Shown here: positions 31,026-64,000 of the stretch, one piece after another
How the letters are laid out: each line of letters begins with the position of its first letter
Position numbering within the stretch: the first letter of the stretch is position 1
Origin: an uncultured Planctomycetia bacterium
Lineage (GTDB): Bacteria; Omnitrophota; Gorgyraeia; Duberdicusellales; 4484-171
DNA: 64,000 nucleotides
Assembly: GCA_964629655.1 (NCBI GenBank)
Contig: CAZVQU010000001.1
Location: 420,056 to 484,055, forward strand
Direction of reading: 5' to 3'
Position numbers and translations under genes: made by a program
Notes under the pieces: model-generated
Told to the model about the DNA's origin: nothing
The model's database searches: none
The model's input: the letters and a program-made list of their open reading frames with translations, nothing else

Positions 31026-31058
31026 ATTATAAAACCAAAAAAAAGGAGGTGAATTGGT

Positions 31059-36100: not shown

Positions 36101-36436
36101 TTTACTAACTCCCCCCTTTGGGTAACCCCTCTATCCTGGCAGGACAGGTGGTTTTGCGTCTCCCAATTACTCGGGATTTGCCTTTGTCCGAAGAGACCTA
36201 ATTGTCAATCAGCTTACAATTAATTGATAACACATTTTTTGCAAAAAAACAAGTATATAAAAGGATAAAATTGCTTTTTTGCACTTTTACATTTAGACTA
36301 AAAAACCCAATACCTGATTGCCTTTTTTACTCTAGCTATGTTAGAAATGGGGGTTCTGGGAAAGATTTTACCTCAAAGCTGTGGGAAAAAATACCAGAAA
36401 GGTACTCATTCGGAAGTAGAGGGAGAGCAGAAAAAC

Positions 36437-49032: not shown

Positions 49033-49050
49033 TTAAGGGTTTTATAAAAA

Positions 49051-49085
49051 AGAGGGTATACTCGTTAAAGTATACCCTCTTTTTA
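49051..49085. terminator. Bidirectional rho-independent terminator between hupB (+) and the rsmB-like gene (-)
   Basis: 11-bp stem AGAGGGTATAC/GTATACCCTCT with an 8-nt loop. Flanked by T-runs on both strands (TTTTAT on the plus strand and, read on the minus strand, TTTTTATAAA). Confidence 0.55.
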
Positions 49086-52191: not shown

Positions 52192-52203
52192 ATAATTTTT
52201 CTC

Positions 52204-53067
52204 CTAAACAGATTGTTTACTGGCTACAGCACCACTCTTAATGCTATTAAATAATTCCTGTGCTTGATCAACCGTAGCATTTTCGTGTATGATTGCCTGT
52301 AGGCCTCTTGCTACTGCTACAGGATTAGGACTCTGCCAGACATTCCTTCCTAAGTTAATGCCAATAGCTCCTTTTTGCATGCCATCATAAACAAACTCAA
52401 AGACCTCACGTTCGGTCTTACATTTAGGCCCGCCAGCCATAACTACTGGCACCGGACAACCATCTACAACCTTATCAAAATCTTCACACCAATATGTTTT
52501 TACTATTCGCGCACCTAATTCTGCTGCAATGCGACAGCATAGGCCAAGATATCTGGCATCTCGTTTCTCCAGCTCTTTGCCTACAGCAGTAACTGCCATA
52601 ACCGGAATTCCATACCTCTCACACTCATTTACGAGACGGGCAAGATTTAGCAGTGTTTGACGTTCATAGTCGCTGCCAATAAAAACTGAAATCCCTACGG
52701 CAGCAGCGTTAAGGCGAACAACCTCCTCTACCGATGTGGTAATCTCTTCATTAGCTAAATCCTTACCTACCATGCTAGTGCCTCCAGATACCCTAAGGAT
52801 AATCGGTTTACTACCAATAGGGTCTATTGCTGAACGTAAGACCCCTCTAGTTGCAAAAAGGGCATCGCAAAAGGGAAGGAGAGGCTTAATGGTCTCTCCT
52901 GGTTTCTCCAAACACCTAGTAGGCCCTTGAAAATAACCATGGTCAATAGGCAAGAAAAAACAATGGCCGTCAGATTTGATAACTTGATTTAAACGATTTT
53001 GCATTCCCCAATCCATCTTTACACCTCCTAATGAGCACATCCCAAAGGGATAGTGCGAATTATCCAT
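52204..53067 (-). CDS. DhnA-family class I aldolase (FBP aldolase Ia / LsrF / ADH-synthase family, DeoC-like TIM barrel)
   Basis: DhnA/LsrF-type N-terminus (GHCFFLPIDHGYFQGP). Length ~270-287 aa. 8-nt overlap with the upstream ALDH gene. Confidence 0.6.
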   Translation of the reverse strand: MDNSHYPFGMCSLGGVKMDWGMQNRLNQVIKSDGHCFFLPIDHGYFQGPTRCLEKPGETIKPLLPFCDALFATRGVLRSAIDPIGSKPIILRVSGGTSMVGKDLANEEITTSVEEVVRLNAAAVGISVFIGSDYERQTLLNLARLVNECERYGIPVMAVTAVGKELEKRDARYLGLCCRIAAELGARIVKTYWCEDFDKVVDGCPVPVVMAGGPKCKTEREVFEFVYDGMQKGAIGINLGRNVWQSPNPVAVARGLQAIIHENATVDQAQELFNSIKSGAVASKQSV

Positions 53068-54550
53068 ACCAATAATTTACTAATGGTTTTGAGTCCTTAG
53101 TAGTATCTACTATGACATTTTTAAGATTTGTATACTCTAACAAACCTTGATCACCTAGTTCTTTACCGAATCCACTTTGCTTAAATCCACCATAAGTGAG
53201 CTGATTAAAAAACATGCCGTAAGTATTGATCCAAATCGTACCGGCATTAACTTTATTAGCTATATTTTTAGCCTTCTCAATATCTTTTGACCAAATACAA
53301 CCAGCAAGAGCAAAATCACTTCGGTTTGCCAATTCAATCGCTTCTTCTACCTTTGAAAATTTACTTATACAGACTACCGGACCAAAAATTTCTTCTTGAA
53401 AGATTGGCTCATCAGGTGAAACTCCCCCGAACACCGTAGGCTCAAAAAAGAACCCTTTTTCTAATCCCTCTTGGGAAGGGATTTTACCGCCCAATAATAA
53501 CTTTACACCACTGGCTTTAGCTTTCTCTGCATACTCAATAACTTTTTCTCTTTGCCATTGTGAAGCCAAAGGCCCCATTTGAGTTTCAAAGTCTAAACCA
53601 TTGCCTAACTTAATAGCTTTTGCTTTTTTAACAAACCCTTCGACGAATTTATCGTAAATGCTATCTTGCACTAAGATTCTTGACATCGCCGTACACATTT
53701 GCCCTTGATTCAAAAATATAGAGCACAAGGAACCATTAACTGCTAATTCCAAATCAGCATCTTTTAAAATAATACTAGCAGATTTACCTCCTAGCTCCAT
53801 AATCAACTTTTTTACATTTTTAGATGAATACTCTAAGATCTTTTTACCCACAATATTTGAACCAGTAAATGAAATCATATCTACTCGCTTATCTGAACAT
53901 AGTGGCTCACCGGCTTCCTCGCCTGGACCAGGCATGACATTAACCACTCCTTTAGGTAAACCTGCTTCATTGATAATCTTTGCTAACTCCAAAGCTGTAA
54001 GCGGGGTTAAACTTGAAGGTTTCAAAATAACTGCGTTTCCAGCTGCTAAGCTCTGAGCCAACTTCCAGGAAGCAATTAACAGTGGGTAGTTCCAGGGGAC
54101 AATCAAACCGACTACTCCTCTTGCCTGAGGTAGAAGCCGGGCTTTTGCCGATGAAACTTGGGATTTTACCTCTATGGTCTCCTCTTTTAGAATCCTTTCA
54201 AGATTATTACCGAAATATTTAAAAGTTTCAGCTGCAGAAGGTATATCCATAAAAGTTGATTCCTTAAGCGGCTTACCCGTATTTAAAGTCTCCAGTTCGG
54301 CCAATTCACCGCACTTTTCCAAAATACCTTGAGATATCTTAAGCAGGAATTCTTTTCTTTGTGCTAAGGAAATATCTCGCCAAGGCCCTTTATCAAAGGC
54401 ATCACGTGCAGCTTTAATTGCTAGATTCACATCTTCCCGAGAAGCTAAACTAACCTCAGCTATAGTTTCACCGGTAGCAGGATTAATTATTTTATTTTTA
54501 AATTTAGAATCCTTAAATTCTCCGTTAATGAATAAATTATAGGTTTTCAT
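53060..54550 (-). CDS. NAD(P)-dependent aldehyde dehydrogenase
   Basis: ALDH catalytic motifs ELGGKSA and GQMCTA. Length 496 aa. Confidence 0.85.
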   Translation of the reverse strand: MKTYNLFINGEFKDSKFKNKIINPATGETIAEVSLASREDVNLAIKAARDAFDKGPWRDISLAQRKEFLLKISQGILEKCGELAELETLNTGKPLKESTFMDIPSAAETFKYFGNNLERILKEETIEVKSQVSSAKARLLPQARGVVGLIVPWNYPLLIASWKLAQSLAAGNAVILKPSSLTPLTALELAKIINEAGLPKGVVNVMPGPGEEAGEPLCSDKRVDMISFTGSNIVGKKILEYSSKNVKKLIMELGGKSASIILKDADLELAVNGSLCSIFLNQGQMCTAMSRILVQDSIYDKFVEGFVKKAKAIKLGNGLDFETQMGPLASQWQREKVIEYAEKAKASGVKLLLGGKIPSQEGLEKGFFFEPTVFGGVSPDEPIFQEEIFGPVVCISKFSKVEEAIELANRSDFALAGCIWSKDIEKAKNIANKVNAGTIWINTYGMFFNQLTYGGFKQSGFGKELGDQGLLEYTNLKNVIVDTTKDSKPLVNYWYG

Positions 54551-55554
54551 CTTATTTTAACCTGCTTAAATAACTCGAATAAGCGCTTAAACGGTACATA
54601 CCAGCGAGACAACTGCCCTAGCTGACCTTTTAACTTCATTTTTCCTTGAGTAACAGCCACAAAAGGATCTACCTTGCCCAGAAAAACTAATTCCCAAATG
54701 TCCTCTGAAGCTGAAATTACAAAAGGTGCATTAAGATCAAATTCTAATTTTTTTATCTTTCCTTTTTCAAAAATAAATCTATACGATTTGTTGTCCTCGT
54801 CCAAGCTTATGGCTAACTCCAGAGTTAGGTCTAGCTCTTGGCCCTTTTTACTAATAAGCTCATCCTTATTAACCAACTCTACGATTGCCTGCACATGCTC
54901 TTTAGAAAACATCTTATAGCTGTCAGTTTTTTGGGTTAAATCCTGCTTCAAAGCCTTGTCTAAATCATCTAAAACTTCTCTTTTGAATAATCTAGCAACA
55001 CTGGCAATTTTTACTGCCTCTTCTAAAGTTTCAATCAAATCAAAACCATCCTTGAAACTTTGGCCTATGCTAATTACGCCATGATTTTTAATTACCGCTA
55101 GGTTATTAGATTTTAAAGCTTCAATTACTAACTCTGGTTTAGTCATACTTGGAGTTTCCTGCACAACAGCTTTTACATTGCCTAAATAGACTTGGGACTC
55201 AAAGGTTAAATTTTTAAGGTCAGAACATACAGAAAAATAGCCGTTGGCTAAAGGTGGATGGCAATGGATTACTGCTTTGGCTTCAAAACTCTCATAAATT
55301 AATCTATGCATAGGGAATTCTGTACTCAAACGATTGTTTTTTAAATCTTTCTCATTATTAAGATTAATTTTAATAATGTCTTCGGGTTTTAATTGGCCTA
55401 GGGATGTCCCGGTAGCCGTGATAAGAATATTGTCTTTGTCTAACCGGGCGCTTAAATTCCCTGACTTAGCAACTGCCAAATGCAGGTTTTGTAATTTCTC
55501 ACCGATTGCAATTATTTTTCGCTTTAACTGTTTTTCTCGGCCTAATACCATCAT
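54547..55554 (-). CDS. Class II aldolase/adducin-family protein fused to a C-terminal SCP2-like domain
   Basis: The N-terminal ~200 aa have class II aldolase signatures (HCHPP His cluster, GNLSAR). The C-terminal ~110 aa end in an SCP2-type motif (GKMKLKGQLGQLSRW). Confidence 0.55.
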   Translation of the reverse strand: MMVLGREKQLKRKIIAIGEKLQNLHLAVAKSGNLSARLDKDNILITATGTSLGQLKPEDIIKINLNNEKDLKNNRLSTEFPMHRLIYESFEAKAVIHCHPPLANGYFSVCSDLKNLTFESQVYLGNVKAVVQETPSMTKPELVIEALKSNNLAVIKNHGVISIGQSFKDGFDLIETLEEAVKIASVARLFKREVLDDLDKALKQDLTQKTDSYKMFSKEHVQAIVELVNKDELISKKGQELDLTLELAISLDEDNKSYRFIFEKGKIKKLEFDLNAPFVISASEDIWELVFLGKVDPFVAVTQGKMKLKGQLGQLSRWYVPFKRLFELFKQVKIR

Positions 55555-56504
55555 CTTACCTCTAGATATATATGCTTAGTAATAAACTTATTAGGAGTTA
55601 TATCAAATGCCGGATAATAAGCCTTTGCACCTTTGGGGGCAAGAGCTACCCCTTGATAGGTTGTAAGTTCCTTGTCCGGTCTTATTTCAATTTTTATATC
55701 TTCCCCAGTCTTTGCACCAGATAACGGAGCACAAAGCACATAAAAAGGAATTTTAAAGTATCTAGCTATCAAGGCAATCTGGTAAGTTCCAACTTTATTA
55801 GCAATATCCCCATTCCCAGCTAAATTATCTGAACCAACTATGACTTTATCAATTTTTCTCTCACTCATTACCTGCGCAACCATATTATCAGTTATTACTG
55901 TAACGTCAAAGCCTGAACGCATAAGCTCCCAGGCAGTAAGCCTTGAACCTTGTAAATAAGGTCGGGTCTCAGTAGCGAAAAAACGTAACTTCTTACCCTT
56001 AGCTTGGGCAAAATCAGCTATTAGAGGCAGGAGGCCGCTAATATTACAATGGGTAAGAACCACATCGCCACCTTTGAGTAATTTAGAAGCTTGTTTTGCT
56101 TGTTTAATCCGGGAATTTTTTAACATCTCTAAAAAACCCAATATAGCCTTATCCAGAGGCATACCTGCTTTATGCCAGCCTAAAACCATATTAGTTAAAT
56201 ATTTAAACGAAAGAGTGGGTCGAGTCGAGTTTATTGCTTTAGCAACCTTAGACAATGTAGGAGAAAGATTCTTCTTACTTTTATTATTCTTAATAACCAG
56301 AAGAAATATATACATAACTAAGATGACCTGTCCAACAGCCCGGGTTTTCATCTGGCGTATCGCCGAACAAGCTTGTAAGTAGTTTTTAGCCTTTATATAT
56401 TTTTCTTTCTGAGGCAATGAAGTCTCATCGAGTATATGAATAGTGTTACCCTTTAATTTAATTGGCCAAAATAAAGGTGAGTATTTTATATTTTTCTTAA
56501 CCAT
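55551..56504 (-). CDS. eIF-2B alpha/beta/delta-family sugar-phosphate isomerase (MtnA / ribose-1,5-bisphosphate isomerase-like)
   Basis: THCNISG, ETRPYLQGSRLTAWEL, VIVGSDNLAGNGDIANKVGTYQIA and FYVLCAP match the MtnA/e2b2 family. Confidence 0.75.
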   Translation of the reverse strand: MVKKNIKYSPLFWPIKLKGNTIHILDETSLPQKEKYIKAKNYLQACSAIRQMKTRAVGQVILVMYIFLLVIKNNKSKKNLSPTLSKVAKAINSTRPTLSFKYLTNMVLGWHKAGMPLDKAILGFLEMLKNSRIKQAKQASKLLKGGDVVLTHCNISGLLPLIADFAQAKGKKLRFFATETRPYLQGSRLTAWELMRSGFDVTVITDNMVAQVMSERKIDKVIVGSDNLAGNGDIANKVGTYQIALIARYFKIPFYVLCAPLSGAKTGEDIKIEIRPDKELTTYQGVALAPKGAKAYYPAFDITPNKFITKHIYLEVR

Positions 56505-56516
56505 CTTTTACACATT

Positions 56517-57140
56517 CTAGTTTTTAAGTTTTGCAATAATACTACAATAATTCCCAAATCTTTTACTTGGAATCATTACGCATCTTAATCCCACCGTATA
56601 ATAAGTTTTAACCCGCAAAGGTTTAAAACCAGCCTGAGATAAAAAACCAAGCCAGACTTCTAAAGACCTGTAAAAATGGCCTAAATCACGGTTAATAATC
56701 GTTTTAGAGAAAGGCAATTCCAAATAAAAATATCCGTTAGGCTTCAGGGATTTATTCACAAAATTGAAAGCAGTAGTTGGACATTCTACATGCTCAAAGA
56801 TATCGAAGGCAGTTACGACATCAAACTTCCCATCAAAAGGTATCCCCTCATTTATATCGCAGCATTTTATACGTTCTGGTCTAGAAACTATATTTTTAGC
56901 ATTTCCTACGGCGTATTCCGAAATATCTAATCCATGCACCTCAAAGTCTCTTTCAATTATCTTTATAAAAAATCCTAAGGCACATCCTATATCTAGTATT
57001 TTTCCTGAAGAAACCATTTCTTTTAGAATCTTTATTCTTCTTTTCCAGAATATTTTTGACCGTAAACCTTCGTAACCAAAAATATAGTTTGAATCTTTGC
57101 CCATGTAATATTCCCTAACGTATTTATTTTTAACCTTCAT
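56517..57140 (-). CDS. Class I SAM-dependent methyltransferase
   Basis: Motif I ILDIGCALGFF. An acidic residue at the end of β2 (HGLDISE). Confidence 0.6.
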   Translation of the reverse strand: MKVKNKYVREYYMGKDSNYIFGYEGLRSKIFWKRRIKILKEMVSSGKILDIGCALGFFIKIIERDFEVHGLDISEYAVGNAKNIVSRPERIKCCDINEGIPFDGKFDVVTAFDIFEHVECPTTAFNFVNKSLKPNGYFYLELPFSKTIINRDLGHFYRSLEVWLGFLSQAGFKPLRVKTYYTVGLRCVMIPSKRFGNYCSIIAKLKN

Positions 57141-57172
57141 AACTTCTGTCTAATCACCATTACAATAAATTT

Positions 57173-58063
57173 TCATTGGCTAAATATGTTAAAGAAGTTT
57201 TTCTGGGTAATTTTTTCCTTAACCTTATCTTCTAAAGTATCTAAGATCTCTAAATTTTTTTGTAAGTTTCCAGATACCGGATAGTCTGAACCCCAAAGAA
57301 TATGGTCTTGGCCAAATAAATCTAAAGCCAACTTGACATTGCCAGAAGATGCCCCGGATGTATCTACATATACTTCTTTTAGAATCTGGGAAGGTAACCT
57401 GCCTAAATCCTTAACTATCTTTCTTTCCCGTAGCATCATATAGACCCGATCGAACCTATTGCTTAGAAAAGGGACAACTCCGCCTAAGGACGCCAGAATA
57501 AACTTGACCTTGAATTTATCAAGTACCCCTTGCATCATAAGAAGCCCTAGAAAGGTAGATATATCCAAGCTGTACTCTAAAACCGGCATAAGCAAAGGAT
57601 CTTTTATCCGACTATAGCCAATAGGATTAATTGTCTGTGAATGAACAAAAATTGGCAAGTCATGCTTCTGGGCTGCTTCAAATAAAGGAAAGAGCTTATC
57701 GACTATAAACTCACCATTATAACTTGAGGCTAGATTTATTGCTCTAAACCCTCTGCTCTTTAATTCGGCTAACTCTAGGGAAATATTGTTTAAGTTTTCT
57801 ACATCAACCAGGCAAGCTGCGATTATCTTAGAATTCTCTTTTAAAATCTTCTCTGATTCCCTATTGTAGATTTCACTAACCCTTTTAAAACCACCCAATT
57901 TAAAATGGGCATCCGTAGAAGGATAGACTAAAAGGGCCTTATCAATGTTGTTACTATCTAAGAACTCATAGAGCTTATCCTTATCGGCCCAAATACCCTT
58001 GTAAAAAGTAGTATGCTCTGAGAGTTCTTGGGGAATAAAATGGATATGGCTATCAGCTAACAT
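57173..58063 (-). CDS. Amidohydrolase-2 family metal-dependent hydrolase (TIM barrel)
   Basis: N-terminal DSHIH metal-binding motif. Length ~296 aa. Asp near the C-terminus (WGSDYP). Confidence 0.5.
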   Translation of the reverse strand: MLADSHIHFIPQELSEHTTFYKGIWADKDKLYEFLDSNNIDKALLVYPSTDAHFKLGGFKRVSEIYNRESEKILKENSKIIAACLVDVENLNNISLELAELKSRGFRAINLASSYNGEFIVDKLFPLFEAAQKHDLPIFVHSQTINPIGYSRIKDPLLMPVLEYSLDISTFLGLLMMQGVLDKFKVKFILASLGGVVPFLSNRFDRVYMMLRERKIVKDLGRLPSQILKEVYVDTSGASSGNVKLALDLFGQDHILWGSDYPVSGNLQKNLEILDTLEDKVKEKITQKNFFNIFSQ

Positions 58064-58066
58064 AAC

Positions 58067-59527
58067 CTATACGTGCTTTTCTCCCTTAACAGCGCCCTCT
58101 TCCCACTTAGTTACGCCCTTCATTACATCTTGGAAGCATAGCTTAGCTAAGGGGTCAAAATTACTAGTCATAATCCTCTGGATTCGACCCGGCTTTGAGA
58201 AGAATTCTCTCATGCACCAGGCGCCTAATCTTCCGTAATCATCCAATTTGAGGTGTTCGGTGGCCATTACCGGATGTAGGAAATCCCACTTAAGAAAATC
58301 TATTTTTTTAGGATCAATCTCACCCTTCTTTATCCTCTGTCTCCAAATTGGAGAGTTCGGTGCCGGAGTAACATAACCTACCCACAAGATATCCGGATCA
58401 ACCTGATCAGTAAATTCAAATCTCTGCTTTATGATAGCTTCGGTGTCACCATCAAAGCCCATCATAATATCAGCAACAATAGCAATATTGTTCTTTCGCA
58501 AAATCTCAATGGTCTTCTTTATCTGTTCAATAGTTATTCCCTTAGCAATTTTCTTTAATTCTGAAGCAGTAGTAACCTCAATGCCGAATACGCCGGTAAA
58601 CAAACCGGACTCTCTCATCAAAGGCAAAATCTCTTCACAATTAACCCAATCAATAGCCCTGCCTAAAGAAACCCATTTAATTGGGTTTTCTTTTTCTAGC
58701 TTTAACCGACAGAACTTCTCTACTCTTTCTGGGTCAACATTAAAATTATCATCCTGGATTACTACTACTTTTACCCCATACTCTTTATGAAGTACTTCTA
58801 GCTCTTCAATTACTCTCTCTGGAGACTTTGCCCGCCATTTTAAGAAATCTTCCGGATGGCGCGGATCATACTGATCCCACTCATAACAAAAAGTACAAGC
58901 TGAAGGGCATCCTCGCGAAGTTACCATCTCAACAAATGGCTTCCAATGAGTATGACCAACATACTTATCCATAGGGAATAAATCATATGCCGGAAGTGGT
59001 AACTTATCTAAATCTGTATTCAAAAGTCTATGTGGCCCCATAACTGCCTTACCCTCTACTCTTGAACTTACTCCGGCAATATCCTTTATCTCTTCTGACT
59101 TCCCTATCTTATTAATTAAATCACAAAAGGCCTCTTCTTCGCCCATAACTACATAGTCAATAGCTGGGTTACTATCCAAAGTAAATACTGGCATTGAAGA
59201 ATACCATAAGCCTCCGGCAATTATCTTGGTATCGGGGAGAACTTCCTTTATTGACTTTGCTGACTGGTTAAAGTAATGAAGAATAGCAAATCCTCCATAG
59301 GAATGAAGCATGTCTCCGAGGACAACTATATCCGGATTCTTTTCTTTCACTTTTTTAATCATTTCCTCGTTTTCTATTTCTAAGGCTTTACAATCTAAAA
59401 CCTCTAAATCCTTATACCCTTTTTCTCTAGCATAAGCAGCCCATTGAGCATAAAGCTGGTTAGGCCCTAAGTGTTTACCGTGTGTTGCCCAAGCGCCCGA
59501 CTTCGGTGTTAAAAATAAAATTTGCAT
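58067..59527 (-). CDS. Class B radical SAM enzyme with N-terminal cobalamin-binding domain
   Basis: B12-binding Rossmann-like N-terminal domain (IVVLGDMLHSYGG). CxxxCxxC (RGCPSACTFC) at ~residue 210. Length 486 aa. Confidence 0.8.
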   Translation of the reverse strand: MQILFLTPKSGAWATHGKHLGPNQLYAQWAAYAREKGYKDLEVLDCKALEIENEEMIKKVKEKNPDIVVLGDMLHSYGGFAILHYFNQSAKSIKEVLPDTKIIAGGLWYSSMPVFTLDSNPAIDYVVMGEEEAFCDLINKIGKSEEIKDIAGVSSRVEGKAVMGPHRLLNTDLDKLPLPAYDLFPMDKYVGHTHWKPFVEMVTSRGCPSACTFCYEWDQYDPRHPEDFLKWRAKSPERVIEELEVLHKEYGVKVVVIQDDNFNVDPERVEKFCRLKLEKENPIKWVSLGRAIDWVNCEEILPLMRESGLFTGVFGIEVTTASELKKIAKGITIEQIKKTIEILRKNNIAIVADIMMGFDGDTEAIIKQRFEFTDQVDPDILWVGYVTPAPNSPIWRQRIKKGEIDPKKIDFLKWDFLHPVMATEHLKLDDYGRLGAWCMREFFSKPGRIQRIMTSNFDPLAKLCFQDVMKGVTKWEEGAVKGEKHV

Positions 59528-59562
59528 CTGACCTTCCTCCTTTTTTTACTTAAAATGTTAAA

Positions 59563-60330
59563 CTATTTTCCCGGGTGATTTTGTTTAAACGGTATCACTG
59601 GCTTCTTCCAAGGCGTTTGCTGGTTTATCACTGCTAACTCTAAAGGGCAGGTGTTGCCGCTTTGAGTAAGAGCAAACAAAACTGTATCAGCTATTGCCTC
59701 CGGCTCCATTAATCTTCCCTCTTCTTGCGATATATCTTTTAGCTTACCGGTTAAGGGGGTTCTGGTTACTCCCGGAAATATTGAAGTAACTTTAATCCCA
59801 AAATCGCGCATCTCCCAGAAAAGCCCCTTAGCAAAAGCTCTCAGGGCGACTTTTAAAGAAGTATAAACTATGAAGTTGCGCGGTGGAGGATCAACCATAA
59901 CTGAACCACTGGTAATATTTACAATATGTCCGCCGCCAGCATCTTTCATCTGATTAACAACTAAGCGCGAAAGCATAACGTAGCTATAATAATTTGTGTA
60001 CATGATTTTTTCTACATCCTCTACTGGCTGCTGCCAAAAAGGATGTTGGCTTGAGACTCCGGCCCCATTAACAACAACATCAATTCTCCCAAATTTCTCT
60101 AAGGTCTTACTGACTAAATTCTCTAAATTACTCTGCTTGGTAACATCACACTTTATGCATAATACTTTATCTTTTTCAGGAAGTGCTTTCTTGATATCTT
60201 CTAGGATCTCCTCTCTTCTTGCGGCAAGAACAAGGCTAGCGCCTTGAGCGGCTAACTTGTTAACTACACTTTTGCCAATCCCACCGCTTGCTCCAGTTAC
60301 AATGCAAACTTTCTCCCTTAACTTACCCAT
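59563..60330 (-). CDS. Short-chain dehydrogenase/reductase (SDR)
   Basis: TGASGGIGKSV cofactor motif. NGAG. YxxxK (YTSLK). Confidence 0.8.
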   Translation of the reverse strand: MGKLREKVCIVTGASGGIGKSVVNKLAAQGASLVLAARREEILEDIKKALPEKDKVLCIKCDVTKQSNLENLVSKTLEKFGRIDVVVNGAGVSSQHPFWQQPVEDVEKIMYTNYYSYVMLSRLVVNQMKDAGGGHIVNITSGSVMVDPPPRNFIVYTSLKVALRAFAKGLFWEMRDFGIKVTSIFPGVTRTPLTGKLKDISQEEGRLMEPEAIADTVLFALTQSGNTCPLELAVINQQTPWKKPVIPFKQNHPGK

Positions 60331-60339
60331 ACTTCCTCC

Positions 60340-61833
60340 CTACTTTTTAATATCCTTATTTTTAGATATACTTTTAATTCTATCTTGAGATATAATAGTC
60401 GTCCCCCAGGATTTTCCTGCGTGTATTTCCAAAACTATTTTTTCATCTGTCTCTTGTAATATAATTCCTTCAATCATCCGCCCGTTTTTCAGGTAGATCT
60501 TATCAAAAAGGGCTATTTTTCTAAAAGATAAATCAGTTGTTTTTTCTAAACGAGTAATATCTTTATCAATAAACCCTGAGTAATCAGACAATGACCTTGC
60601 TTCTTCTAAAGCCATTAAAGCCTCTATTTTATTCCCCAAGTTTTCTTCAATTCTGGAAAGAGTTAGGTGCGCCGGCCTCCAAGAAGGGTGGTGCTTTATA
60701 ATATCCTCTACGATCTTCTTTGCCTTACTATTATCACCAACCGCGCTATAAGAATAAGCTATGCTATTAAGAATATTGATATCATCAGGAATGATTTCAA
60801 GTTTCTTGCGGCAATTTTCTATTTCTATGTAATATTCTTTCATTGCCTCTTCTTTCTTACCCTGTTGAGTGTAAATATCTCCTAAATCATTATGAATGTA
60901 GAGGTATCCAGGTAAATATTCAAGTATTTTTTTATACTCTACTAAAGCCTTATCAAGTAGTCCCTCGTCGCGATAAAGACTTGCCAAGCTGTAATTAAAA
61001 TTAAGATTATCCGGTAAAATCTCTAATGCATTTTTTAGATGAACAATTGCTTCGCTATAATCCTCGATATTCATAAGGGCAAGACCTAAACTATTATGGA
61101 GATAACTATTCTCGGAATCGATGAGTAAACCGGATTTATATTCGGAAATAGCTTTTTCATAATTGCCTTTTTTATAATAAAGATCGCCTAAAAGAATTCT
61201 GGCTAAAAGAAAATCGGATTTTATCTGTAAAACTTCTTTTAATAATTCTTCAGCCTGAACATAATTGTTATCAGCGATATAAAAACGGCTTAAAAAATAA
61301 TATGGTTGGATATAATTTGGGCCAATTTTTAAAGCTTTATTTAGCAGAAGATAAGCTTCCGCTTTATCGCCAGCCGAATAAGCTTCAATGCCTTCGTTTA
61401 CGCAAAATAGTATATATCCAGAGTAGACCTCTTCGTGAAGGCCTTTTATCGCTGCCTCAGCTGGAAATTCGGCTTCAGCTCTTTTAAGAAGGCTAAGCGC
61501 CTCTTTATACATCTGTCTATTCAAATATATCCGGCCAAGGGCAGAATAAACATTCGCATTTTTGGGTTGAGTTTGAATTGAATTTTTATATTCTTTGATT
61601 GCAGCATCTTCATCCTCTAATTTCATATAAACGTTAGCCAAATTAGAATAGAGAACAGAAGAAGATTCAACCTTTAGGGCTTTCTGAAAATACGATATTG
61701 CTTCTTCATACAAATCCTGCTTGAAGCAACCAACGCCTTTATTATTAAGAAAAGCGGCTAAGTGAGGCTTGCTAGTATACGCTAAAACTAGCAACAGGAT
61801 AAAAACGAGCGACCACTCAATTATTCTCTTCAT
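60340..61833 (-). CDS. Secreted TPR-repeat protein
   Basis: Signal peptide or TM anchor. At least 8 TPR-like repeats (AISYFQKAL, AIKEYKNSIQ, and others). Confidence 0.6.
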   Translation of the reverse strand: MKRIIEWSLVFILLLVLAYTSKPHLAAFLNNKGVGCFKQDLYEEAISYFQKALKVESSSVLYSNLANVYMKLEDEDAAIKEYKNSIQTQPKNANVYSALGRIYLNRQMYKEALSLLKRAEAEFPAEAAIKGLHEEVYSGYILFCVNEGIEAYSAGDKAEAYLLLNKALKIGPNYIQPYYFLSRFYIADNNYVQAEELLKEVLQIKSDFLLARILLGDLYYKKGNYEKAISEYKSGLLIDSENSYLHNSLGLALMNIEDYSEAIVHLKNALEILPDNLNFNYSLASLYRDEGLLDKALVEYKKILEYLPGYLYIHNDLGDIYTQQGKKEEAMKEYYIEIENCRKKLEIIPDDINILNSIAYSYSAVGDNSKAKKIVEDIIKHHPSWRPAHLTLSRIEENLGNKIEALMALEEARSLSDYSGFIDKDITRLEKTTDLSFRKIALFDKIYLKNGRMIEGIILQETDEKIVLEIHAGKSWGTTIISQDRIKSISKNKDIKK

Positions 61834-61864
61834 AGTAAATTGTTTATGCTACTGACTTTTAGTT

Positions 61865-62989
61865 TCAGTTAACTATTTTTCTTAAGTTGGAACCGAGAAA
61901 AAATATGCTTATACCGACTACAATGAATAAAGCCTTAAACCCTGCTATCGATACTAGCAATCCTCCTAAAAAAGCACCCAGGCCTCCAAAGCTAAAACGT
62001 AAAGCGCTATTTAAACTTGAAGCATCACGTAAAATCCTATCAGGGAATAAGGTAAGATGGGATGCTAATCCAACATGAGTAAGAGCCATGCCTGCACCCC
62101 ACAAGGTTATCATTAAAAAAATTAGCTTATAATTTCCTATAAAGACAAGAGAAAAAGCAAATGCACTCATTAGGACAAAACCAATGCTGCTTATCTTGAT
62201 ATTTCCGAAACGAGTACTTAAAAAGCCTCCGGAAAATTCGAATACTATCGCAGCTAGAGTGGAAACGGTAAAAACTGAACTTATAACTATTTGGGATAGC
62301 GAAAAACTCTCACTCAAATAAATACCTAAACGTTGCTGTAAGCCGTGGTAAAGGAGGCTTCCTAACATAACTACGATAAAAAAATTAACTGCTTTTTTAT
62401 CTTTTAAGGTATCAAGATAACTTATCTTGAATTTATCCACCCTGAAATCAAAGTCTTCTAGTCGAGTGAGTACTAAAATAAATACCAGCAAGCTTGCAAT
62501 TGATGGTATTAGATAAAGCCGTAAGGGAAAGTCGGAAAAGAATCCGCTTAAGAACACACTGATTAAGTTTGAAATATAAGAAAAAGCAAAAAACACCCCG
62601 ATAGATTTTGCTTTATCCTTAATAGGGATAACCTTGCCGATAGTTATAAGAACCAAAGGCACAAAACTACAACCAAAACAACCCATAAGAAATCTAGACA
62701 TAAAGGCCTGCTCTATGCTCTTTGATAAACTAAACCAAAGAGAAGATAAAAAGAATCCTAAAGTTGTAATCAGAAGAATCTTTCTCACCCTGACTATCCT
62801 GGTAAAAGGACCCCAAATAAGGGCGAATACTCCATAAGGAAGCATATAAAGCCAAGTGAGTGGCAAAGCATGATCCTTAGCTATCCCAAAGTAAACAGCT
62901 ATCGATGGTATTAGAGCTGCCGTAGCCGCAACACCAAAGGATATCACAAAAAACATCAGGCAAAAGATGTAAAAACTTATCTTGGACAT
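61865..62989 (-). CDS. MFS transporter
   Basis: About 12 TM helices. Length 374 aa. Confidence 0.65.
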   Translation of the reverse strand: MSKISFYIFCLMFFVISFGVAATAALIPSIAVYFGIAKDHALPLTWLYMLPYGVFALIWGPFTRIVRVRKILLITTLGFFLSSLWFSLSKSIEQAFMSRFLMGCFGCSFVPLVLITIGKVIPIKDKAKSIGVFFAFSYISNLISVFLSGFFSDFPLRLYLIPSIASLLVFILVLTRLEDFDFRVDKFKISYLDTLKDKKAVNFFIVVMLGSLLYHGLQQRLGIYLSESFSLSQIVISSVFTVSTLAAIVFEFSGGFLSTRFGNIKISSIGFVLMSAFAFSLVFIGNYKLIFLMITLWGAGMALTHVGLASHLTLFPDRILRDASSLNSALRFSFGGLGAFLGGLLVSIAGFKALFIVVGISIFFLGSNLRKIVN

Positions 62990-63417
62990 TATTCTTTTTC
63001 TATAATTTCCTTAAATCTCTTTAAATTATCTTGAGAATGCTTATTTATTAACTCCTCAACCTGAGAATCAGTATATTTGGCCTTAACGTCCATGGTAAAA
63101 TCCTGAATCCAAGTCATCTCAATCCCACCATCTACATCTCTATAGAGCCAGATAATCTTCATATACTGGAAAGGAAACATCGGCTCTACCTTACAAGCAT
63201 AAGCGAACTTATCATCCTTAAAAAGCAAACGATAAGACTTCCAGCTATTTCCATTCTTATGGGTGAGTTGAAAAGTAATCTTATTGTCTTTAGTTTCTAA
63301 AACATCTGACGCTGTATATTCGTCAAACAACTCTTTCCAACGGGAAATATCATTACTAATATCAAATACCAACTCATATGGTGCATTGATTATGATTGAA
63401 TTTGCTGTATGTGCCAT
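62989..63417 (-). CDS. SRPBCC-fold protein (polyketide cyclase/dehydrase-like, Polyketide_cyc2)
   Basis: 142 aa, with a ...W...YK pattern. Its stop is coupled to the downstream MFS start (1-nt overlap). Confidence 0.45.
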   Translation of the reverse strand: MAHTANSIIINAPYELVFDISNDISRWKELFDEYTASDVLETKDNKITFQLTHKNGNSWKSYRLLFKDDKFAYACKVEPMFPFQYMKIIWLYRDVDGGIEMTWIQDFTMDVKAKYTDSQVEELINKHSQDNLKRFKEIIEKE

Positions 63418-63441
63418 AAGCCTCCTTTTTTTAAAAAATAA

Positions 63442-63927
63442 TTACAAAACCGCAACTACTCTTGCCCAAGCAGCGCCGGTATTTATTATTCTTACCGGAA
63501 AACAAATAACTTTAAATCCAAAATTCGGCAATTTATCTAAATTAGCTAACCGCTCAATATGAGCAAACTCTCTTTTTCTACCGTGAAAATGCGCTGGCCA
63601 AAGATGCCTAGGATCTTTATTTTTCATAAAATCCTTGATCATAAACTTATAAGGTCTGTCAATGCCCATAGTATCTACTCCAAATATCTTTATTCCTTTA
63701 TCAAGAAGATAATCTATGGCTGATGAGTTTATACCTGGGTAATCACTAAAATATTTAGGTGTCCCGTGTAAATGGTCGGAACCAGTATGTATAAGAACAA
63801 TATCCAGAGGCTTTAAAGTATAACCTATCTTCTCTACAGCAATTTTTAAGTCTTCGGCCCCAATAATCTCCTCTGACCTTTTACCGGTAAGGTCTAGCTT
63901 TACACCATCGCAGTTACACCACTCCAA
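63442..63927 (-). CDS. Cyclase-family protein (kynurenine formamidase-like); N-terminus probably extends beyond the ORF-track start
   Basis: Motifs typical of the central and C-terminal part of cyclase-family proteins are present (IVLIHTGSDH, KIFGVDTMGID). The N-terminal HxGTHxDxPxH motif is not present, so the true start probably lies upstream toward the window edge. Confidence 0.5.
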   Translation of the reverse strand: MEWCNCDGVKLDLTGKRSEEIIGAEDLKIAVEKIGYTLKPLDIVLIHTGSDHLHGTPKYFSDYPGINSSAIDYLLDKGIKIFGVDTMGIDRPYKFMIKDFMKNKDPRHLWPAHFHGRKREFAHIERLANLDKLPNFGFKVICFPVRIINTGAAWARVVAVL

Positions 63928-64000
63928 AGGTATCTCATCAGCTGTTTTTGAAGGCCTACCCTCAGACTTACTCCCGTAATGGAAGGAATAATCAAGGTGA

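Follow-up and report, generated by a model that had tools for sequence, protein, structure and literature searches.

A gene array that continues past the window edge

At the end of the window, by which we mean the whole analysed stretch of 64,000 nucleotides, lie eight adjoining minus-strand open reading frames with intergenic gaps of -1 to 35 nt (Table 1). The original prediction had listed eight consecutive minus-strand genes here, and both the array and all eight domain or family calls were confirmed, each with Pfam support. The outermost gene, the PF04199 cyclase, is truncated by the window edge rather than degenerate, since its frame stays open up to base 64000 and contains ...HLDYSFH..., a piece of the metal-binding motif; on contig L001, which is 100% identical to window positions 54552-64000, the full-length protein has 265 aa. 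Beyond the edge, L001 runs into the complete cyclase and then into ACP and KS-beta.

Table 1 Cluster genes located within the window
Feature	Coordinates	Strand	Evidence
PF04199 'cyclase' family metal hydrolase/cyclase, 5' end cut	63442..64000	-	Pfam 67.1 bits, profile positions 51-142 only
SRPBCC protein	62989..63417	-	Polyketide_cyc2 32.2 bits, Polyketide_cyc 31.6 bits
MFS transporter	61865..62989	-	MFS_1, 101 bits
TPR protein, N-terminal hydrophobic segment	60340..61833	-	TPR families (Pfam)
Classical SDR	59563..60330	-	adh_short 163.5 bits, KR 55.7 bits
Radical SAM (rSAM) enzyme	58067..59527	-	Radical_SAM 86.6 bits, B12-binding 40.0 bits (cutoff 32.1)
Amidohydro_2 enzyme	57173..58063	-	Pfam, 64.4 bits
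Methyltransferase, class I SAM	56517..57140	-	Pfam Methyltransf_23, 57.5 bits
MtnA-like 5-(deoxy/methylthio)ribose-1-phosphate isomerase	55551..56504	-	IF-2B 191.8 bits
Class II (Zn) aldolase with C-terminal SCP2	54547..55554	-	Aldolase_II 114 bits; SCP2 22.8 bits (cutoff 21.3)
NAD(P)-dependent aldehyde dehydrogenase (ALDH)	53060..54550	-	Aldedh, 562.8 bits
LsrF-like DhnA-type aldolase/thiolase	52204..53067	-	NF006081 358.3 bits (cutoff 297)
Zn-dependent alcohol/polyol dehydrogenase (Zn-ADH)	51163..52191	-	ADH_N and ADH_zinc_N

In the Ca. Susulua loci, whose rSAM is 91% identical to that of the window, the order is AMP-ligase, PNP, DUF2621, ApbA, TIGR04076, KS, KS, ACP, cyclase, SRPBCC, MFS, SDR, rSAM, Amidohydro_2, MtnA, aldolase and ALDH. 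Relatives further encode KS-alpha, a TIGR04076 and a DUF2621 protein, an ApbA-like reductase, an MTA-phosphorylase-like nucleoside phosphorylase (the PNP) and an AMP-ligase. What the eight genes show is one end of a cluster that has about 20 members and is common to many uncultivated anaerobic bacteria; the five genes downstream in the window, from the MtnA-like gene to the Zn-ADH gene, also belong to it. The biosynthetic character originally proposed for the locus holds, but its boundaries had been drawn wrongly in both directions: the unit extends past base 64000 and downstream to 51163, and the 'compact' eight-gene tailoring locus is instead the in-window part of a probable type II PKS cluster of approximately 20 genes, with KS-beta and ACP just past the window edge. 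Housekeeping RlmN and RsmF genes come next in the same co-directional array.

Conservation of the cluster and its exporters

A relative of the rSAM is encoded in 217 species-representative genomes, and co-conservation was counted in 36 species-representative genomes in which the 10-kb flanks of the rSAM gene are complete. Core genes are found together in 28-35 of these 36 loci, most of them in 34-35: KS-alpha, KS-beta, ACP, TIGR04076, cyclase, SRPBCC, SDR and Amidohydro_2 in 35, ApbA and MtnA in 34, aldolase and MFS in 32, DUF2621 in 31 and PNP in 28. The ALDH was counted in 21, a figure limited by the 10-kb flank, and the pair of LsrF-like and Zn-ADH genes in 7. Cyclase homologues have a median identity of 71% in their 35 loci, and across 80 species genomes the identity of rSAM homologues is 73-93%; the largest group of these 80 loci places the rSAM gene between KS-beta and ACP. 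The same gene set is kept across three different gene orders, with the nucleoside block (PNP, MtnA, aldolase, ALDH and associated genes) split around the PKS genes in one, downstream of them in another and upstream in the third; in several loci the LsrF-like gene lies between aldolase and ALDH. The grouping is far beyond chance; best conserved of all is the rSAM, on which every cluster variant centres. Its neighbours are strongly co-conserved with it, a check that the original prediction had proposed.

Besides the rSAM itself, five of the eight genes first grouped together are kept in 32-35 of the 36 loci, but two are not. The TPR gene is confined to L001, L010 and L011, which makes 2/36 among loci with full flanks, and the methyltransferase gene to L001, the same sequence as the window (0/36), its similarity to the methyltransferase of a cluster type without PKS being a generic 27%. 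These two genes, one lineage-specific and the other strain-specific, are late insertions in the window's lineage and not part of the core.

The MFS transporter is a probable exporter. MMPL, LolA-like and DUF1302 genes lie on the flanks of the cluster in the closed ORM2a genome as well as in metagenomic variants. Among Desulfobacterota and metagenomic variants they either stand beside the MFS gene, which the ORM2a locus (L039) keeps, or occur where no MFS was detected (L100, L112). A hydrophobic, exported product, as first suggested, is plausible.

A probable type II polyketide synthase core with cyclisation genes

For KS-alpha, the top scores came from AntD (366 bits) and the actinorhodin KS (358), with FabF at 338; it is thus nearest to anthraquinone and actinorhodin synthases, yet only slightly nearer to PKS ketosynthases than to FabF. 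It passes the PRK07314 subfamily cutoff (437 against 387), and both KS proteins score high against FabF models. KS-beta scored 289 bits with FabF and 204 with the actinorhodin CLF, and so is nearer to the former. The active-site positions read Cys/His/His in KS-alpha and Lys/Asp/Asn in KS-beta, which is predicted to be catalytically dead; its Lys stands where CLFs have Gln.

The SRPBCC protein matched TcmN (2rez) with 101.5 bits (E 3e-28) and WhiE and ZhuI with 88-89 bits, and keeps residues matching TcmN W28, F32, Y35, W65, S67, R69, F88, M91, W95, W108 and Q110. The earlier 'polyketide-cyclase-like' label had the family right but was too cautious, as these matches point to a genuine TcmN-type (TcmN/WhiE/ZhuI) monodomain aromatase/cyclase. 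The PF04199 cyclase contains an HxGTHxDxxxH motif, with weak PDB matches only (isatin hydrolase, kynurenine formamidase), and some loci also hold a cupin gene. The SDR is a probable polyketide ketoreductase. For the 'amidohydrolase', the Amidohydro_2 family stands, but its best PDB matches (ACMSD, IDCase, PtmU3 and LigW at 37-47 bits), together with an N-terminal HxH and a C-terminal Asp, place it in the ACMSD/IDCase/LigW decarboxylase branch.

The radical SAM enzyme and the nucleoside block

The CxxxCxxC motif of the rSAM (C207/C211/C214) is invariant, and its best Foldseek matches are OxsB, TsrM, AprD4, MgmA, TokK and CysS, with MqnE a weak and partial structural match only. The enzyme scored 200 bits against the BchE family (cutoff 481) and 140 against HpnJ (cutoff 578). 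It has the class B architecture originally assigned, with an N-terminal B12-binding-type domain, and forms a subfamily of its own. Cobalamin dependence, the other half of that assignment, is suggested only by the domain, and among PDB sequences the enzyme matches AprD4 best, which is not known to bind cobalamin. Membership of a housekeeping BchE-like clade had been named as the outcome that would tell against a biosynthetic role; BchE is the nearest named family, yet the score lies far under its cutoff, and the biosynthetic role stands.

Where a cluster has no PKS, the rSAM is still accompanied by the nucleoside block. Within the block, the PNP is nearest to the hexameric MTA phosphorylase 1jds. 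The MtnA-like protein exceeds the cutoff of TIGR00524 (203.9 bits against 185.85) and falls below that of the equivalog TIGR00512 (227 against 279); it scored 184 and 160 bits against the T. maritima and B. subtilis MtnA, and its conserved TxCN and GADR motifs align with the HCN Cys and GSD Asp of MtnA. In the aldolase, E79, H97, H99 and H158 are invariant and the Zn ligands are present. The N-domain of its AF2 model (pLDDT 85.5) matches FucA and DrdA, and the SCP2 domain, whose signature matched human SCP2 (BLASTP E 5e-5), is placed after the C-terminal end of the aldolase fold, the part that in FucA lies over the aldehyde site. This fusion is universal and ancient in the system and is retained at 35% identity in PKS-less clusters; neither DrdA/FucA-type aldolases nor the stand-alone tandem aldolase of L135 carry it. 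The ALDH has generic BADH-like matches, none above an equivalog cutoff, and its ELGGKS and GQMCTA motifs, with the Glu and Cys of irreversible enzymes, apparently make it non-acylating; every variant has an aldehyde-oxidising enzyme, be it ALDH, AOR or an XDH-family enzyme. By type, the AMP-ligase belongs with long-chain/aryl ligases and not with the acetyl-CoA-synthetase-like ones.

The LsrF-like gene probably starts near 53016, and its homologues are 260-270 aa long and 78-93% identical. Proteins 79-81% identical to the window copy are also found outside the cluster, which argues for a small, common metabolite as substrate. A Zn-ADH gene always accompanies it, the pair standing alone in L134 and L135; the nearest families of the Zn-ADH are threonine 3-DH, scyllo-inosose 3-DH and galactitol-1-P 5-DH.

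Three divergent versions of MtnA, aldolase and ALDH have substituted for one another at the same site, whereas rSAM identity remains at 73-91%, which argues that their function is selected within the cluster. In PKS-less clusters, seen in at least seven diverged metagenomic loci, AMP-ligase, rSAM, PNP, MtnA, aldolase-SCP2 and ALDH form a colinear, self-contained set adjoining lipid exporters, and four or five of about ten genes are given to the nucleoside block. Shunt genes were not seen near some PKS-type relatives, namely L112 (both 10-kb flanks) and L094 (downstream of the rSAM only). Phosphorylase, isomerase and class II aldolase together make up the published DHAP shunt (PMC10986504, PMC12632272).

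Proposed pathway and alternatives

With about even confidence, we read the locus as a vertically conserved, roughly 20-gene anaerobic type II PKS cluster that makes an aromatic lipid for export and carries its own 5'-deoxyadenosine shunt. From the gene content, co-conservation, family membership and catalytic residues described above, we infer the chemical steps, their order and the role of the shunt as follows. The KS-alpha/KS-beta pair and the discrete ACP would build a poly-beta-keto chain on a starter that the AMP-ligase may load; folding and aromatisation would be the task of the TcmN-type aromatase/cyclase and the PF04199 cyclase, SDR and ApbA-like reductase would reduce carbonyls, and the ACMSD-type enzyme would take off a terminal aryl carboxylate. 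The BchE-like class B rSAM could functionalise a C-H bond without O2, by C-methylation or by a BchE-like oxidation/cyclisation, probably on a carrier-bound intermediate, and the hydrophobic product would leave via MFS or, in other lineages, MMPL/LolA-like/DUF1302. The cluster-dedicated DHAP shunt (MTA-phosphorylase-like, MtnA-like, class II aldolase, ALDH and, in some lineages, Zn-ADH and LsrF-like enzymes) would convert 5'-deoxyadenosine, the inhibitory rSAM co-product, into DHAP and acetaldehyde and then acetate or acetyl-CoA. We know of no characterised biosynthetic cluster with such a dedicated shunt, which counts against this reading, as do the PKS-type relatives without shunt genes in the 10 kb examined and the TIGR04076, DUF2621 and ApbA-like proteins, for which the scheme has no firm step.

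By-product disposal also leaves unexplained the SCP2 fusion in every aldolase version, the long-chain-type AMP-ligase and the heavy share of block genes in PKS-less clusters. All three favour an alternative that we consider possible though rather unlikely, in which the block handles an adenosylated pathway intermediate, the kind of substrate on which the PNP_UDP_1 enzymes of rSAM pathways (HpnG, MqnB) act. The rSAM would add the 5'-deoxyadenosyl radical to a hydrophobic acceptor, as in HpnH/HpnG (hopanoids) or MqnE/MqnB (futalosine); the phosphorylase would take off adenine, the MtnA-like enzyme would give a 5-substituted ribulose-1-phosphate, and cleavage by the SCP2-fused aldolase would liberate DHAP and an aldehyde that exceeds the acceptor by two carbons. 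Oxidised by the ALDH, this would yield an acid that the AMP-ligase activates as PKS starter or, in PKS-less clusters, as an exported lipid. The placement of SCP2, the self-contained block beside lipid exporters, the constant presence of an aldehyde oxidiser and the non-acylating residues of the ALDH fit such a route. It is opposed by the class B, BchE-like architecture of the rSAM, which the known adenosylating enzymes HpnH and MqnE lack, by the poor MqnE match, by the closeness of the MtnA to bona fide MtnA and the fact that the PNP matches an ordinary MTA phosphorylase best, by the roughly 80% identical extra-cluster copies of the LsrF-like and Zn-ADH proteins, suggesting a small common substrate, and by PKS-type relatives without the block nearby.

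The aromatic product could itself be questioned: KS pair, ACP and rSAM might build or modify a fatty-acid-type membrane lipid (ladderane-like, branched or membrane-spanning), which is close to the 'lipid-modification locus' of the original prediction and to antiSMASH 'ladderane' calls, reported and unexplained in Omnitrophota and Desulfobacterota (PMC9902471). The FabF-like scores of both KS proteins lean this way, and lipid-type exporters and the SCP2 domain would suit such a lipid; the small margin of KS-alpha, the nearness of KS-beta to FabF and its Lys count against the aromatic reading. We nevertheless regard it as improbable, given the aromatase/cyclase with intact predicted catalytic residues in 35 of 36 loci, the second cyclase and occasional cupin, the conserved aryl-acid decarboxylase family, the nearness of KS-alpha to AntD and the actinorhodin KS, and a ladderane rSAM model that scored 82 bits on the cluster rSAM (cutoff 360); neither a dehydratase nor an enoyl reductase was detected in the cluster. 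Already disfavoured, and to us very improbable, is that a secondary-metabolite operon and a housekeeping methionine or 5'-deoxynucleoside salvage operon without ties to the rSAM are neighbours by chance or shared regulation. DHAP-shunt genes do make independent operons in other bacteria (PMC10986504), the LsrF-like and Zn-ADH genes also occur alone, and RlmN and RsmF follow directly in the array, but these two are found in 6-8 of the 36 loci against 32-34 for the nucleoside block, which lies inside or beside the cluster in all three gene orders, has had divergent versions replaced in place and accompanies the rSAM even where the PKS is absent.

The biosynthetic array extends beyond the window edge

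The original prediction read eight minus-strand genes at the right edge of the window as a compact biosynthetic or lipid-modification locus. Searches against Pfam bore out all eight family calls, namely a class I methyltransferase, an Amidohydro_2 protein, a Radical_SAM enzyme with a B12-binding domain (hereafter rSAM), an SDR, a TPR protein, an MFS transporter, an SRPBCC/polyketide cyclase and a PF04199 cyclase. The interpretation as a biosynthetic unit stood, and its compactness did not: the unit runs past the window edge and also downstream, and the locus forms a fragment of a predicted type II PKS cluster that is widely conserved among anaerobic bacteria and has an unusual accessory set of rSAM and nucleoside-processing genes. 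At the edge itself, the Pfam match of the PF04199 cyclase spans profile positions 51-142 only, and because its frame stays open to base 64000 and includes part of the metal-binding motif, we consider the gene cut by the window rather than decayed. Contig L001, which is 100% identical to the window over 9449 bases, continues for another 1339 bases and supplies further cluster genes beyond 64 kb: a complete 265-aa cyclase, a 77-aa acyl carrier protein (ACP) and a ketosynthase-like protein represented by its last 278 residues.

In the other direction, the minus-strand genes form a tight co-directional run. Five genes, spaced by -8 to 12 nt, follow immediately on the methyltransferase gene and encode, in order, an MtnA-like isomerase, a class II aldolase-SCP2 protein, an aldehyde dehydrogenase (ALDH), an LsrF-like DhnA-type enzyme and a Zn-dependent dehydrogenase (Zn-ADH), after which come the housekeeping genes RlmN and RsmF. 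A perfect hairpin just past the RsmF stop codon marks the array end and is the sole convincing terminator-like structure in this 15-gene array. Promoter-like sequences are no more numerous than in shuffled sequences (53 vs 44.7 +/- 6.2); given this count and the lone convincing hairpin after RsmF, operon limits inside the array cannot be set. Neither cobalamin nor SAM riboswitches were found in the cluster region of the window or in six related loci, and composition gave no sign of recent horizontal transfer (GC 0.35-0.40 in the cluster region, 0.33-0.43 in the whole window).

The missing upstream part is seen in Ca. Susulua stagnicola (locus L003), whose rSAM is 91% identical to that of the window. 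Upstream of the cyclase, this locus encodes an AMP-ligase, a PNP_UDP_1 phosphorylase (PNP), a DUF2621 protein, an ApbA/PanE-like reductase, a TIGR04076 protein, KS-alpha, KS-beta and the ACP, in this order. For the window genome, the genes upstream of the contig edge were inferred from such relatives, KS-alpha from 35 of 36 loci, and the PNP, whose gene lies outside the window, was likewise read from them.

Positions of the features discussed in the window and in homologous loci
Feature	Locus	Position	Strand	Remarks
Eight genes of the original prediction	window	56517-64000	-	
Segment shared with contig L001	window	54552-64000		
Radical SAM enzyme	window	58067-59527	-	N-terminal B12-binding-type domain
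Co-directional run of genes	window	right edge down to 49107	-	
Hairpin past RsmF	window	49047-49084		16-bp stem
LsrF-like ORF as annotated	window	52204-53067	-	287 aa
LsrF-like + Zn-ADH pair	window	51163-53067	-	
LsrF-like + Zn-ADH pair	L134	10001-12018		apart from the cluster
LsrF-like + Zn-ADH pair	L135	2500-5897		apart from the cluster
Two B12-binding rSAM genes, 4HBT thioesterase, FabD-like acyltransferase, ACP	L134	1-3145	-	Deltaproteobacteria MAG
TIGR04076 protein	L003	3472-4056		194 aa, two TIGR04076 repeats
DUF2621 protein	L003	2146-2412		88-90 aa in the three loci
DUF2621 protein	L087	1762-2031		
DUF2621 protein	L094	1281-1553		
Tungsten-type aldehyde:ferredoxin oxidoreductase	L112	11477-13342		locus without nucleoside block
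XDH-family molybdenum enzyme and Moco biosynthesis genes	L094	12370-15893		locus without nucleoside block
c-di-GMP-I-GGC riboswitch aptamer	window	36117-36191	-	60.3 bits, gathering score 59
ORF downstream of the aptamer	window	35773-36012	-	79 aa
ORF downstream of the aptamer	window	35517-35780	-	87 aa, signal-peptide-like N-terminus
Four secreted or outer-membrane-like proteins	window	29634-35516	+	463, 208, 265 and 958 aa, with signal peptides
tRNA-Gln(CTG)	window	29269-29343		
Long ORF	window	20137-25293	-	1718 aa

The gene set is conserved through three gene orders

To characterize how widely the cluster is distributed, we collected relatives of the rSAM. The protein collection contains 802 of them at E <= 1e-10; identity in the best 120 clusters ranges from 73 to 91%, and Omnitrophota account for nearly all of these. 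A scan with one genome per species recovered a relative in 217 genomes, of which the best 80 loci were compared by calling ORFs in all of them and matching these to 23 reference proteins. The best 80 loci are mostly from Omnitrophota, with a few from Desulfobacterota, including the closed genome ORM2a (CP113000.1), and rSAM identity across these species-level genomes is 73-93%. Co-occurrence was counted in those 36 loci whose 10-kb flanks are complete.

This analysis revealed a large and stable core. TIGR04076, KS-alpha, KS-beta, ACP, cyclase, SRPBCC, SDR and Amidohydro_2 are each present in 35/36 loci, the ApbA-like reductase and the MtnA-like isomerase in 34 each, aldolase-SCP2 and MFS in 32 each, DUF2621 in 31 and PNP in 28. 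ALDH (21/36) and AMP-ligase (11/36) are less frequent, both counts being limited by flank length. The LsrF-like gene and Zn-ADH occur as a pair in seven loci, and RlmN and RsmF in eight and six. The same gene set is carried in three gene orders: the window-like order A has the phosphorylase upstream of the PKS genes and MtnA and aldolase downstream; order B runs KS-alpha, KS-beta, rSAM, ACP and, further on, Amidohydro_2, PNP, MtnA and aldolase; order C has AMP-ligase, PNP, MtnA, aldolase and ALDH all upstream. The co-conservation of the neighbours with the rSAM, which the original prediction presupposed, was thus found for the core genes in most of the full-flank loci and in all three orders, and the persistence of the set despite rearrangement argues strongly for a single functional unit. 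By this comparison, the TPR gene (2/36) and the methyltransferase gene (0/36) are late insertions in the lineage of the window, whose methyltransferase is not orthologous to that of the PKS-less clusters described below.

Two observations concern the labels of public genomes. Contig JAIWAR010000017.1 (L034) belongs by its label to a Methanosarcinales archaeon MAG; it contains the bacterial cluster together with RlmN and RsmF, 61-77% identical to those of the window, and is probably mis-binned. Many TPA MAGs titled 'uncultured Planctomycetia' contain the same Omnitrophota-type cluster and look like the same lineage.

A predicted type II PKS core with aromatase/cyclase and envelope export genes

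Against the PDB, KS-alpha scores highest with AntD (366 bits), from the anthraquinone synthase of Photorhabdus, and next with the actinorhodin KS (358), FabF being just behind (338); its Cys/His/His triad is intact (C165, H306 and H343 in L003). KS-beta carries Lys/Asp/Asn at these three positions, and its ADKASS motif is also present on L001; it matches FabF more closely than the actinorhodin CLF and has Lys where CLFs have Gln. Judged by these residues, KS-beta is a predicted dead, CLF-like partner. The ACP is a discrete PP-binding protein with a GVDSTE motif on L001 (PF00550, 47 bits in L003). The window SRPBCC protein aligns to the aromatase/cyclase TcmN with an E of 3e-28, WhiE and ZhuI being nearly as good, and keeps the residues corresponding to TcmN W28, F32, Y35, W65, S67, R69, F88, M91, W95, W108 and Q110. 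For the Amidohydro_2 protein (PF04909, 64.4 bits; no NCBIfam match), the HxH motif and the C-terminal Asp are visible, and the best PDB matches are the decarboxylases ACMSD, IDCase, LigW and PtmU3, at just 37-47 bits. The PF04199 protein keeps its metal motif and has weak matches to solved structures. A cupin and a CBM_11-like protein are extra in some loci, and no dehydratase, enoyl reductase or oxygenase was detected among the cluster genes. Taken together, the gene set is predicted to encode a type II PKS together with cyclases for the first and second rings, reductases and a putative aryl-acid decarboxylase, a cluster identity that is well supported and, in our judgement, very likely correct.

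The flanks of the ORM2a cluster hold MarR and MMPL genes on one side and LolA-like and DUF1302 genes on the other, and the MMPL/LolA-like/DUF1302 export set also recurs in metagenomic variants. The set suggests a hydrophobic product that would be delivered to the envelope.

Two small proteins accompany the core. The TIGR04076 protein, always encoded just upstream of KS-alpha, is the second most conserved cluster gene product (median identity 76%), and each of its repeats contains three invariant Cys (GxC, FCxG, TCPDGG). The DUF2621 protein goes with the rSAM and the ApbA-like reductase, distant lineages included, and is weakly similar (E 0.01-0.03) to the C-terminal PCP_red domain of the protochlorophyllide reductase BchB, a likeness worth noting since the nearest named family of the rSAM is BchE.

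The radical SAM enzyme is a hub of three modules

The rSAM has a CxxxCxxC motif (C207, C211, C214) that is invariant in 32 sequences, and an N-terminal B12-binding-type domain (PF02310, 40.0 bits > 32.1). We also searched its predicted model, whose pLDDT of 70 is mediocre and supports the architecture only, with Foldseek; the top matches, OxsB, TsrM, AprD4, MgmA, TokK and CysS, are all class B. AprD4 is also the best PDB sequence match (40.5 bits), an enzyme that has a B12-binding-type domain but is not known to bind cobalamin. We assign the rSAM a class B (B12-binding-domain) architecture with putative cobalamin use.

Named families were tried and rejected. BchE (TIGR02026) scored best, at 200.1 bits vs an equivalog cutoff of 481.35, ahead of HpnJ (TIGR03471, 139.7 vs 577.6), HpnR (TIGR04367, 88.7 vs 650) and the ladderane rSAM (TIGR04072, 81.7 vs 360), and PhpK was far below its cutoff. 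A housekeeping, BchE-like role was rejected in view of the neighbouring PKS genes and of the hosts, in whose lineages we know of no phototrophs.

Among 1.84 billion representative proteins, the nearest relatives beyond the family are 35-49% identical, and these too occur in PKS or shunt contexts. One relative lineage (rSAM 49% identical) has the rSAM, a DUF2621-like protein and ApbA, then a KS; another has two rSAM genes (54% and 38% identical) around the same PKS set; a third (~56% identical) combines the rSAM with a tungsten-type aldehyde:ferredoxin oxidoreductase, ApbA, TIGR04076 and the PKS set, and no nucleoside genes were found within 10 kb in it. The fourth lineage (~46% identical), represented by at least seven diverged loci, lacks the PKS and retains AMP-ligase, rSAM, PNP, MtnA, aldolase-SCP2, ALDH, MMPL, LolA-like and DUF1302 genes. 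These contexts make the rSAM the hub of three modules: the PKS; DUF2621 with ApbA; and the nucleoside block (PNP, MtnA-like isomerase and aldolase-SCP2) with ALDH and AMP-ligase.

The PKS-less loci (L092, L096, L097, L099, L100, L101 and L106) share the order AMP-ligase, rSAM, PNP, split MtnA, aldolase-SCP2, ALDH, MMPL, LolA-like, DUF1302, optionally preceded by CBM_11-like, PadR and methyltransferase genes, and the single metagenome Ga0180301 contains four diverged versions of this cluster. In L112 and L094, an alternative aldehyde-oxidising enzyme adjoins the rSAM or the cluster.

A nucleoside-processing block with replaceable parts

A phosphorylase, an MtnA-type isomerase and a class II aldolase together constitute the DHAP shunt for 5'-deoxyadenosine and MTA (PMC10986504, PMC12632272). 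Here, the PNP has its best PDB match in 1jds, the hexameric MTA phosphorylase from S. solfataricus (94 bits), with DeoD-type enzymes scoring lower. The MtnA-like protein scores 184 and 160 bits against T. maritima and B. subtilis MtnA, and its HCN Cys and GSD Asp line up with the conserved motifs of 1t9k and 2yrf; it passed the subfamily model TIGR00524 and failed the equivalog TIGR00512 (227 vs 279). The aldolase shares the fold of FucA and of DrdA (6btd/6btg), which is a 5-deoxyribulose-1-phosphate aldolase, with its own Zn ligands and catalytic Glu (E79, H97, H99, H158) invariant in 38 sequences. The SCP2 lipid-binding domain of the aldolase is unusual. It scores above the Pfam cutoff, the same match being recorded for most homologues, and the SCP2 signature aligns to human SCP2 (hand-entered sequence) with a BLASTP E of 5e-5. 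In the PKS-less clusters the fusion persists over its whole length, at 35% identity. The PNP was also tried as HpnG (43.5 bits vs a cutoff of 187) and as futalosine hydrolase (20.5 vs 124.7), and both were rejected.

Also unusual is that MtnA, aldolase and ALDH have each diverged into three versions, with 35-45% mutual identity, and that these are swapped in place. In Omnitrophota, the 'type 2' versions resemble those of the PKS-less clusters (52-70%) no less than they resemble one another; the rSAMs of the same loci are 73-83% identical to other Omnitrophota copies and ~46% to the PKS-less type. This pattern indicates that the function of the block was retained while its parts were replaced.

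In several loci the LsrF-like and Zn-ADH pair lies between aldolase and ALDH; elsewhere it stands alone (~80% identity), and there the next gene encodes a tandem class II aldolase of 415 aa from which SCP2 is absent. The LsrF-like enzyme passes NCBIfam NF006081 (358.3 bits > 297). No lsr operon context (LsrK, LsrG, LsrACDB) surrounds its gene, the neighbours being ALDH, Zn-ADH, aldolase and MtnA. The Zn-ADH itself is similar to dehydrogenases of sugars and polyols. Since C4-oxidised 5-deoxyribulose-1-phosphate is 3-hydroxy-5-phosphonooxypentane-2,4-dione, a known LsrF substrate, the pair may turn a shunt intermediate into DHAP and acetyl-CoA. It may thus represent an undescribed, acetyl-CoA-yielding branch of the DHAP shunt, with the substrate inferred; our literature search found no link between LsrF and 5-deoxyribose. 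The annotated LsrF-like ORF is probably too long: homologues have 260-270 aa and cover 91% of it, which places the likely start at a Met near 53016. Beside the stand-alone pair in L134 lies a further group of B12-binding rSAM and acyl-processing genes, listed in the table.

Proposed function and alternative readings

We propose that under anoxia the type II PKS would build an aromatic, probably phenolic or quinonoid, lipid-like polyketide, which would be shaped by the TcmN-type and PF04199 cyclases, reduced by the SDR and ApbA-like enzymes and decarboxylated by the Amidohydro_2 enzyme. The rSAM would contribute an oxygen-independent methylation or a BchE-like oxidation, probably on a carrier-bound intermediate, as in the largest group of loci its gene is flanked by KS-beta and ACP. 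The nucleoside block would remove 5'-deoxyadenosine. This by-product role is the more conservative of two readings of the block, and we give the complete model an even chance. One competitor, a chance adjacency of two operons, is highly improbable, being contradicted by the three gene orders and the in-place replacements. A fatty-acid or ladderane-type lipid role is also improbable, weakened by the intact aromatase/cyclase and by the dehydratase and enoyl-reductase genes not being detected.

The second reading of the block is a serious if unlikely contender. In it, the nucleoside block would act on an adenosylated pathway intermediate and lead to a two-carbon-extended aldehyde and then to an acid activated by the AMP-ligase. 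Such a role would account for features such as the SCP2 fusion throughout the system, the long-chain-type AMP-ligase, the self-contained and colinear PKS-less clusters and the finding of an aldehyde-oxidising enzyme in every variant (ALDH, AOR or XDH-family), and it has a precedent in HpnG and MqnB, PNP_UDP_1 enzymes that act on adenosylated intermediates in rSAM pathways. The class B architecture of the rSAM, unlike that of HpnH and MqnE, argues against it, as do the ordinary MTAP-like and MtnA-like sequences, the LsrF-like proteins ~80% identical outside the cluster and the PKS-type relatives without the block nearby. Spelled out as chemistry, the rSAM and the nucleoside block would form a previously undescribed anaerobic two-carbon homologation route, a proposal we regard as doubtful. 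The 5'-deoxyadenosyl radical may be added to a hydrophobic acceptor and the adduct trimmed by the MTA-phosphorylase-like, MtnA-like and SCP2-fused aldolase enzymes, which may release DHAP and an aldehyde keeping ribose C4' and C5'; the aldehyde may then be oxidised and the acid activated by the AMP-ligase, to serve as PKS starter or, in PKS-less clusters, as an exported lipid acid.

The linkage of the rSAM to nucleoside-processing enzymes is tight and repeatedly re-assorted. Two meanings are possible: this is the first biosynthetic cluster to bring along a disposal route for 5'-deoxyadenosine, or it is a new use of the SAM adenosyl group as a building block. If homologation were true, it would be the third use of SAM as adenosyl donor in lipid/quinone-type biosynthesis, after hopanoids and futalosine, and the first in which DHAP-shunt enzymes are used as biosynthetic steps.

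Comparison with characterised systems

To our knowledge, type II PKSs are known almost only from aerobic actinomycetes, and tailoring in the known systems depends on O2-dependent oxygenases. The predicted type II PKS described here is conserved in uncultivated Omnitrophota, in at least 80 species-level genomes, and occurs also in Desulfobacterota, e.g., ORM2a from a benzene-degrading culture, and a BchE-like rSAM appears to stand in for the oxygenases. Like whiE/tcm-type clusters (TcmN, WhiE-ORFVI, ZhuI), it combines a KS-alpha/KS-beta pair, a discrete ACP and a monodomain SRPBCC protein with the TcmN catalytic residues, and the cupin of some loci could by analogy resemble TcmJ of tcm. It differs from them in its KS-beta, with Lys/Asp/Asn instead of the CLF Gln and closer to FabF, in the absence of oxygenases, and in its hosts, Omnitrophota and Desulfobacterota, both lineages known as anaerobes. 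We know of no characterised type II PKS cluster that contains a BchE-like rSAM, TIGR04076, DUF2621, an ApbA-like reductase or the nucleoside block. The Photorhabdus ant cluster, a Gram-negative type II PKS, provides the best KS-alpha match; among its genes are those for a ketoreductase, an aromatase and a cyclase and one that resembles an AMP-ligase gene. AntE (6smo_C), however, matches KS-beta over the N-terminal part only (124 bits), the AntI-type lyase and AntB-type transferase were not seen here, and ant has neither rSAM nor nucleoside block. Aryl polyene/flexirubin-type clusters share the FabF-like KS pair, ACP, ketoreductase, AMP-ligase and the MMPL and LolA-like envelope-lipid export set; the present cluster departs from them in lacking dehydratases and in having an aromatase/cyclase, a putative decarboxylase, the rSAM and the nucleoside block.

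The nucleoside block parallels the DHAP shunt (MtnP/MtnK-MtnA-Ald2; DrdK-DrdI-DrdA) in its predicted phosphorylase, MtnA-like isomerase and class II aldolase with catalytic residues kept, but it is embedded in a biosynthetic cluster, carries SCP2 on the aldolase, has an MtnA below the equivalog cutoff and has ALDH attached, in some lineages with the LsrF-like enzyme and Zn-ADH as well. The LsrF-like enzyme scores above the NF006081 cutoff like LsrF itself, the 3-hydroxy-5-phosphonooxypentane-2,4-dione thiolase of AI-2 processing, but has no lsr operon genes nearby and is always partnered by the Zn polyol dehydrogenase. The rSAM agrees with the BchE/HpnJ branch in domain order, CxxxCxxC motif and class B fold. 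With HpnH-HpnG and MqnE-MqnB the system shares the encoding of an rSAM together with a PNP_UDP_1 enzyme and, as predicted here, a hydrophobic or aromatic product, a resemblance of logic only: the rSAM is not of the HpnH or MqnE type, and those pathways have no MtnA or aldolase steps.

No published description of this cluster was found in the literature. In a 2023 catalogue of KS-CLF pairs, Ca. Omnitrophica is one of 14 phyla that make up an unexplored clade outside the actinobacteria; the catalogue gives neither a cluster analysis nor a product (PMC10132072). A study of the Cariaco Basin reported antiSMASH calls of the 'ladderane' class, left unexplained, from both Omnitrophota and Desulfobacterota (PMC9902471). 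The cluster described here is a concrete candidate behind unexplained 'ladderane' or 'aryl polyene' genome-mining calls in these phyla. The rSAM identity of 73-93% is unusually high for secondary metabolism and points to an important envelope component or a redox-active molecule.

Other features of the window

Outside the cluster region, the window contains a c-di-GMP-I-GGC riboswitch aptamer with two short minus-strand ORFs downstream of it, a plus-strand group of four genes for secreted or outer-membrane-like proteins, a tRNA-Gln(CTG) gene and one very long minus-strand ORF.
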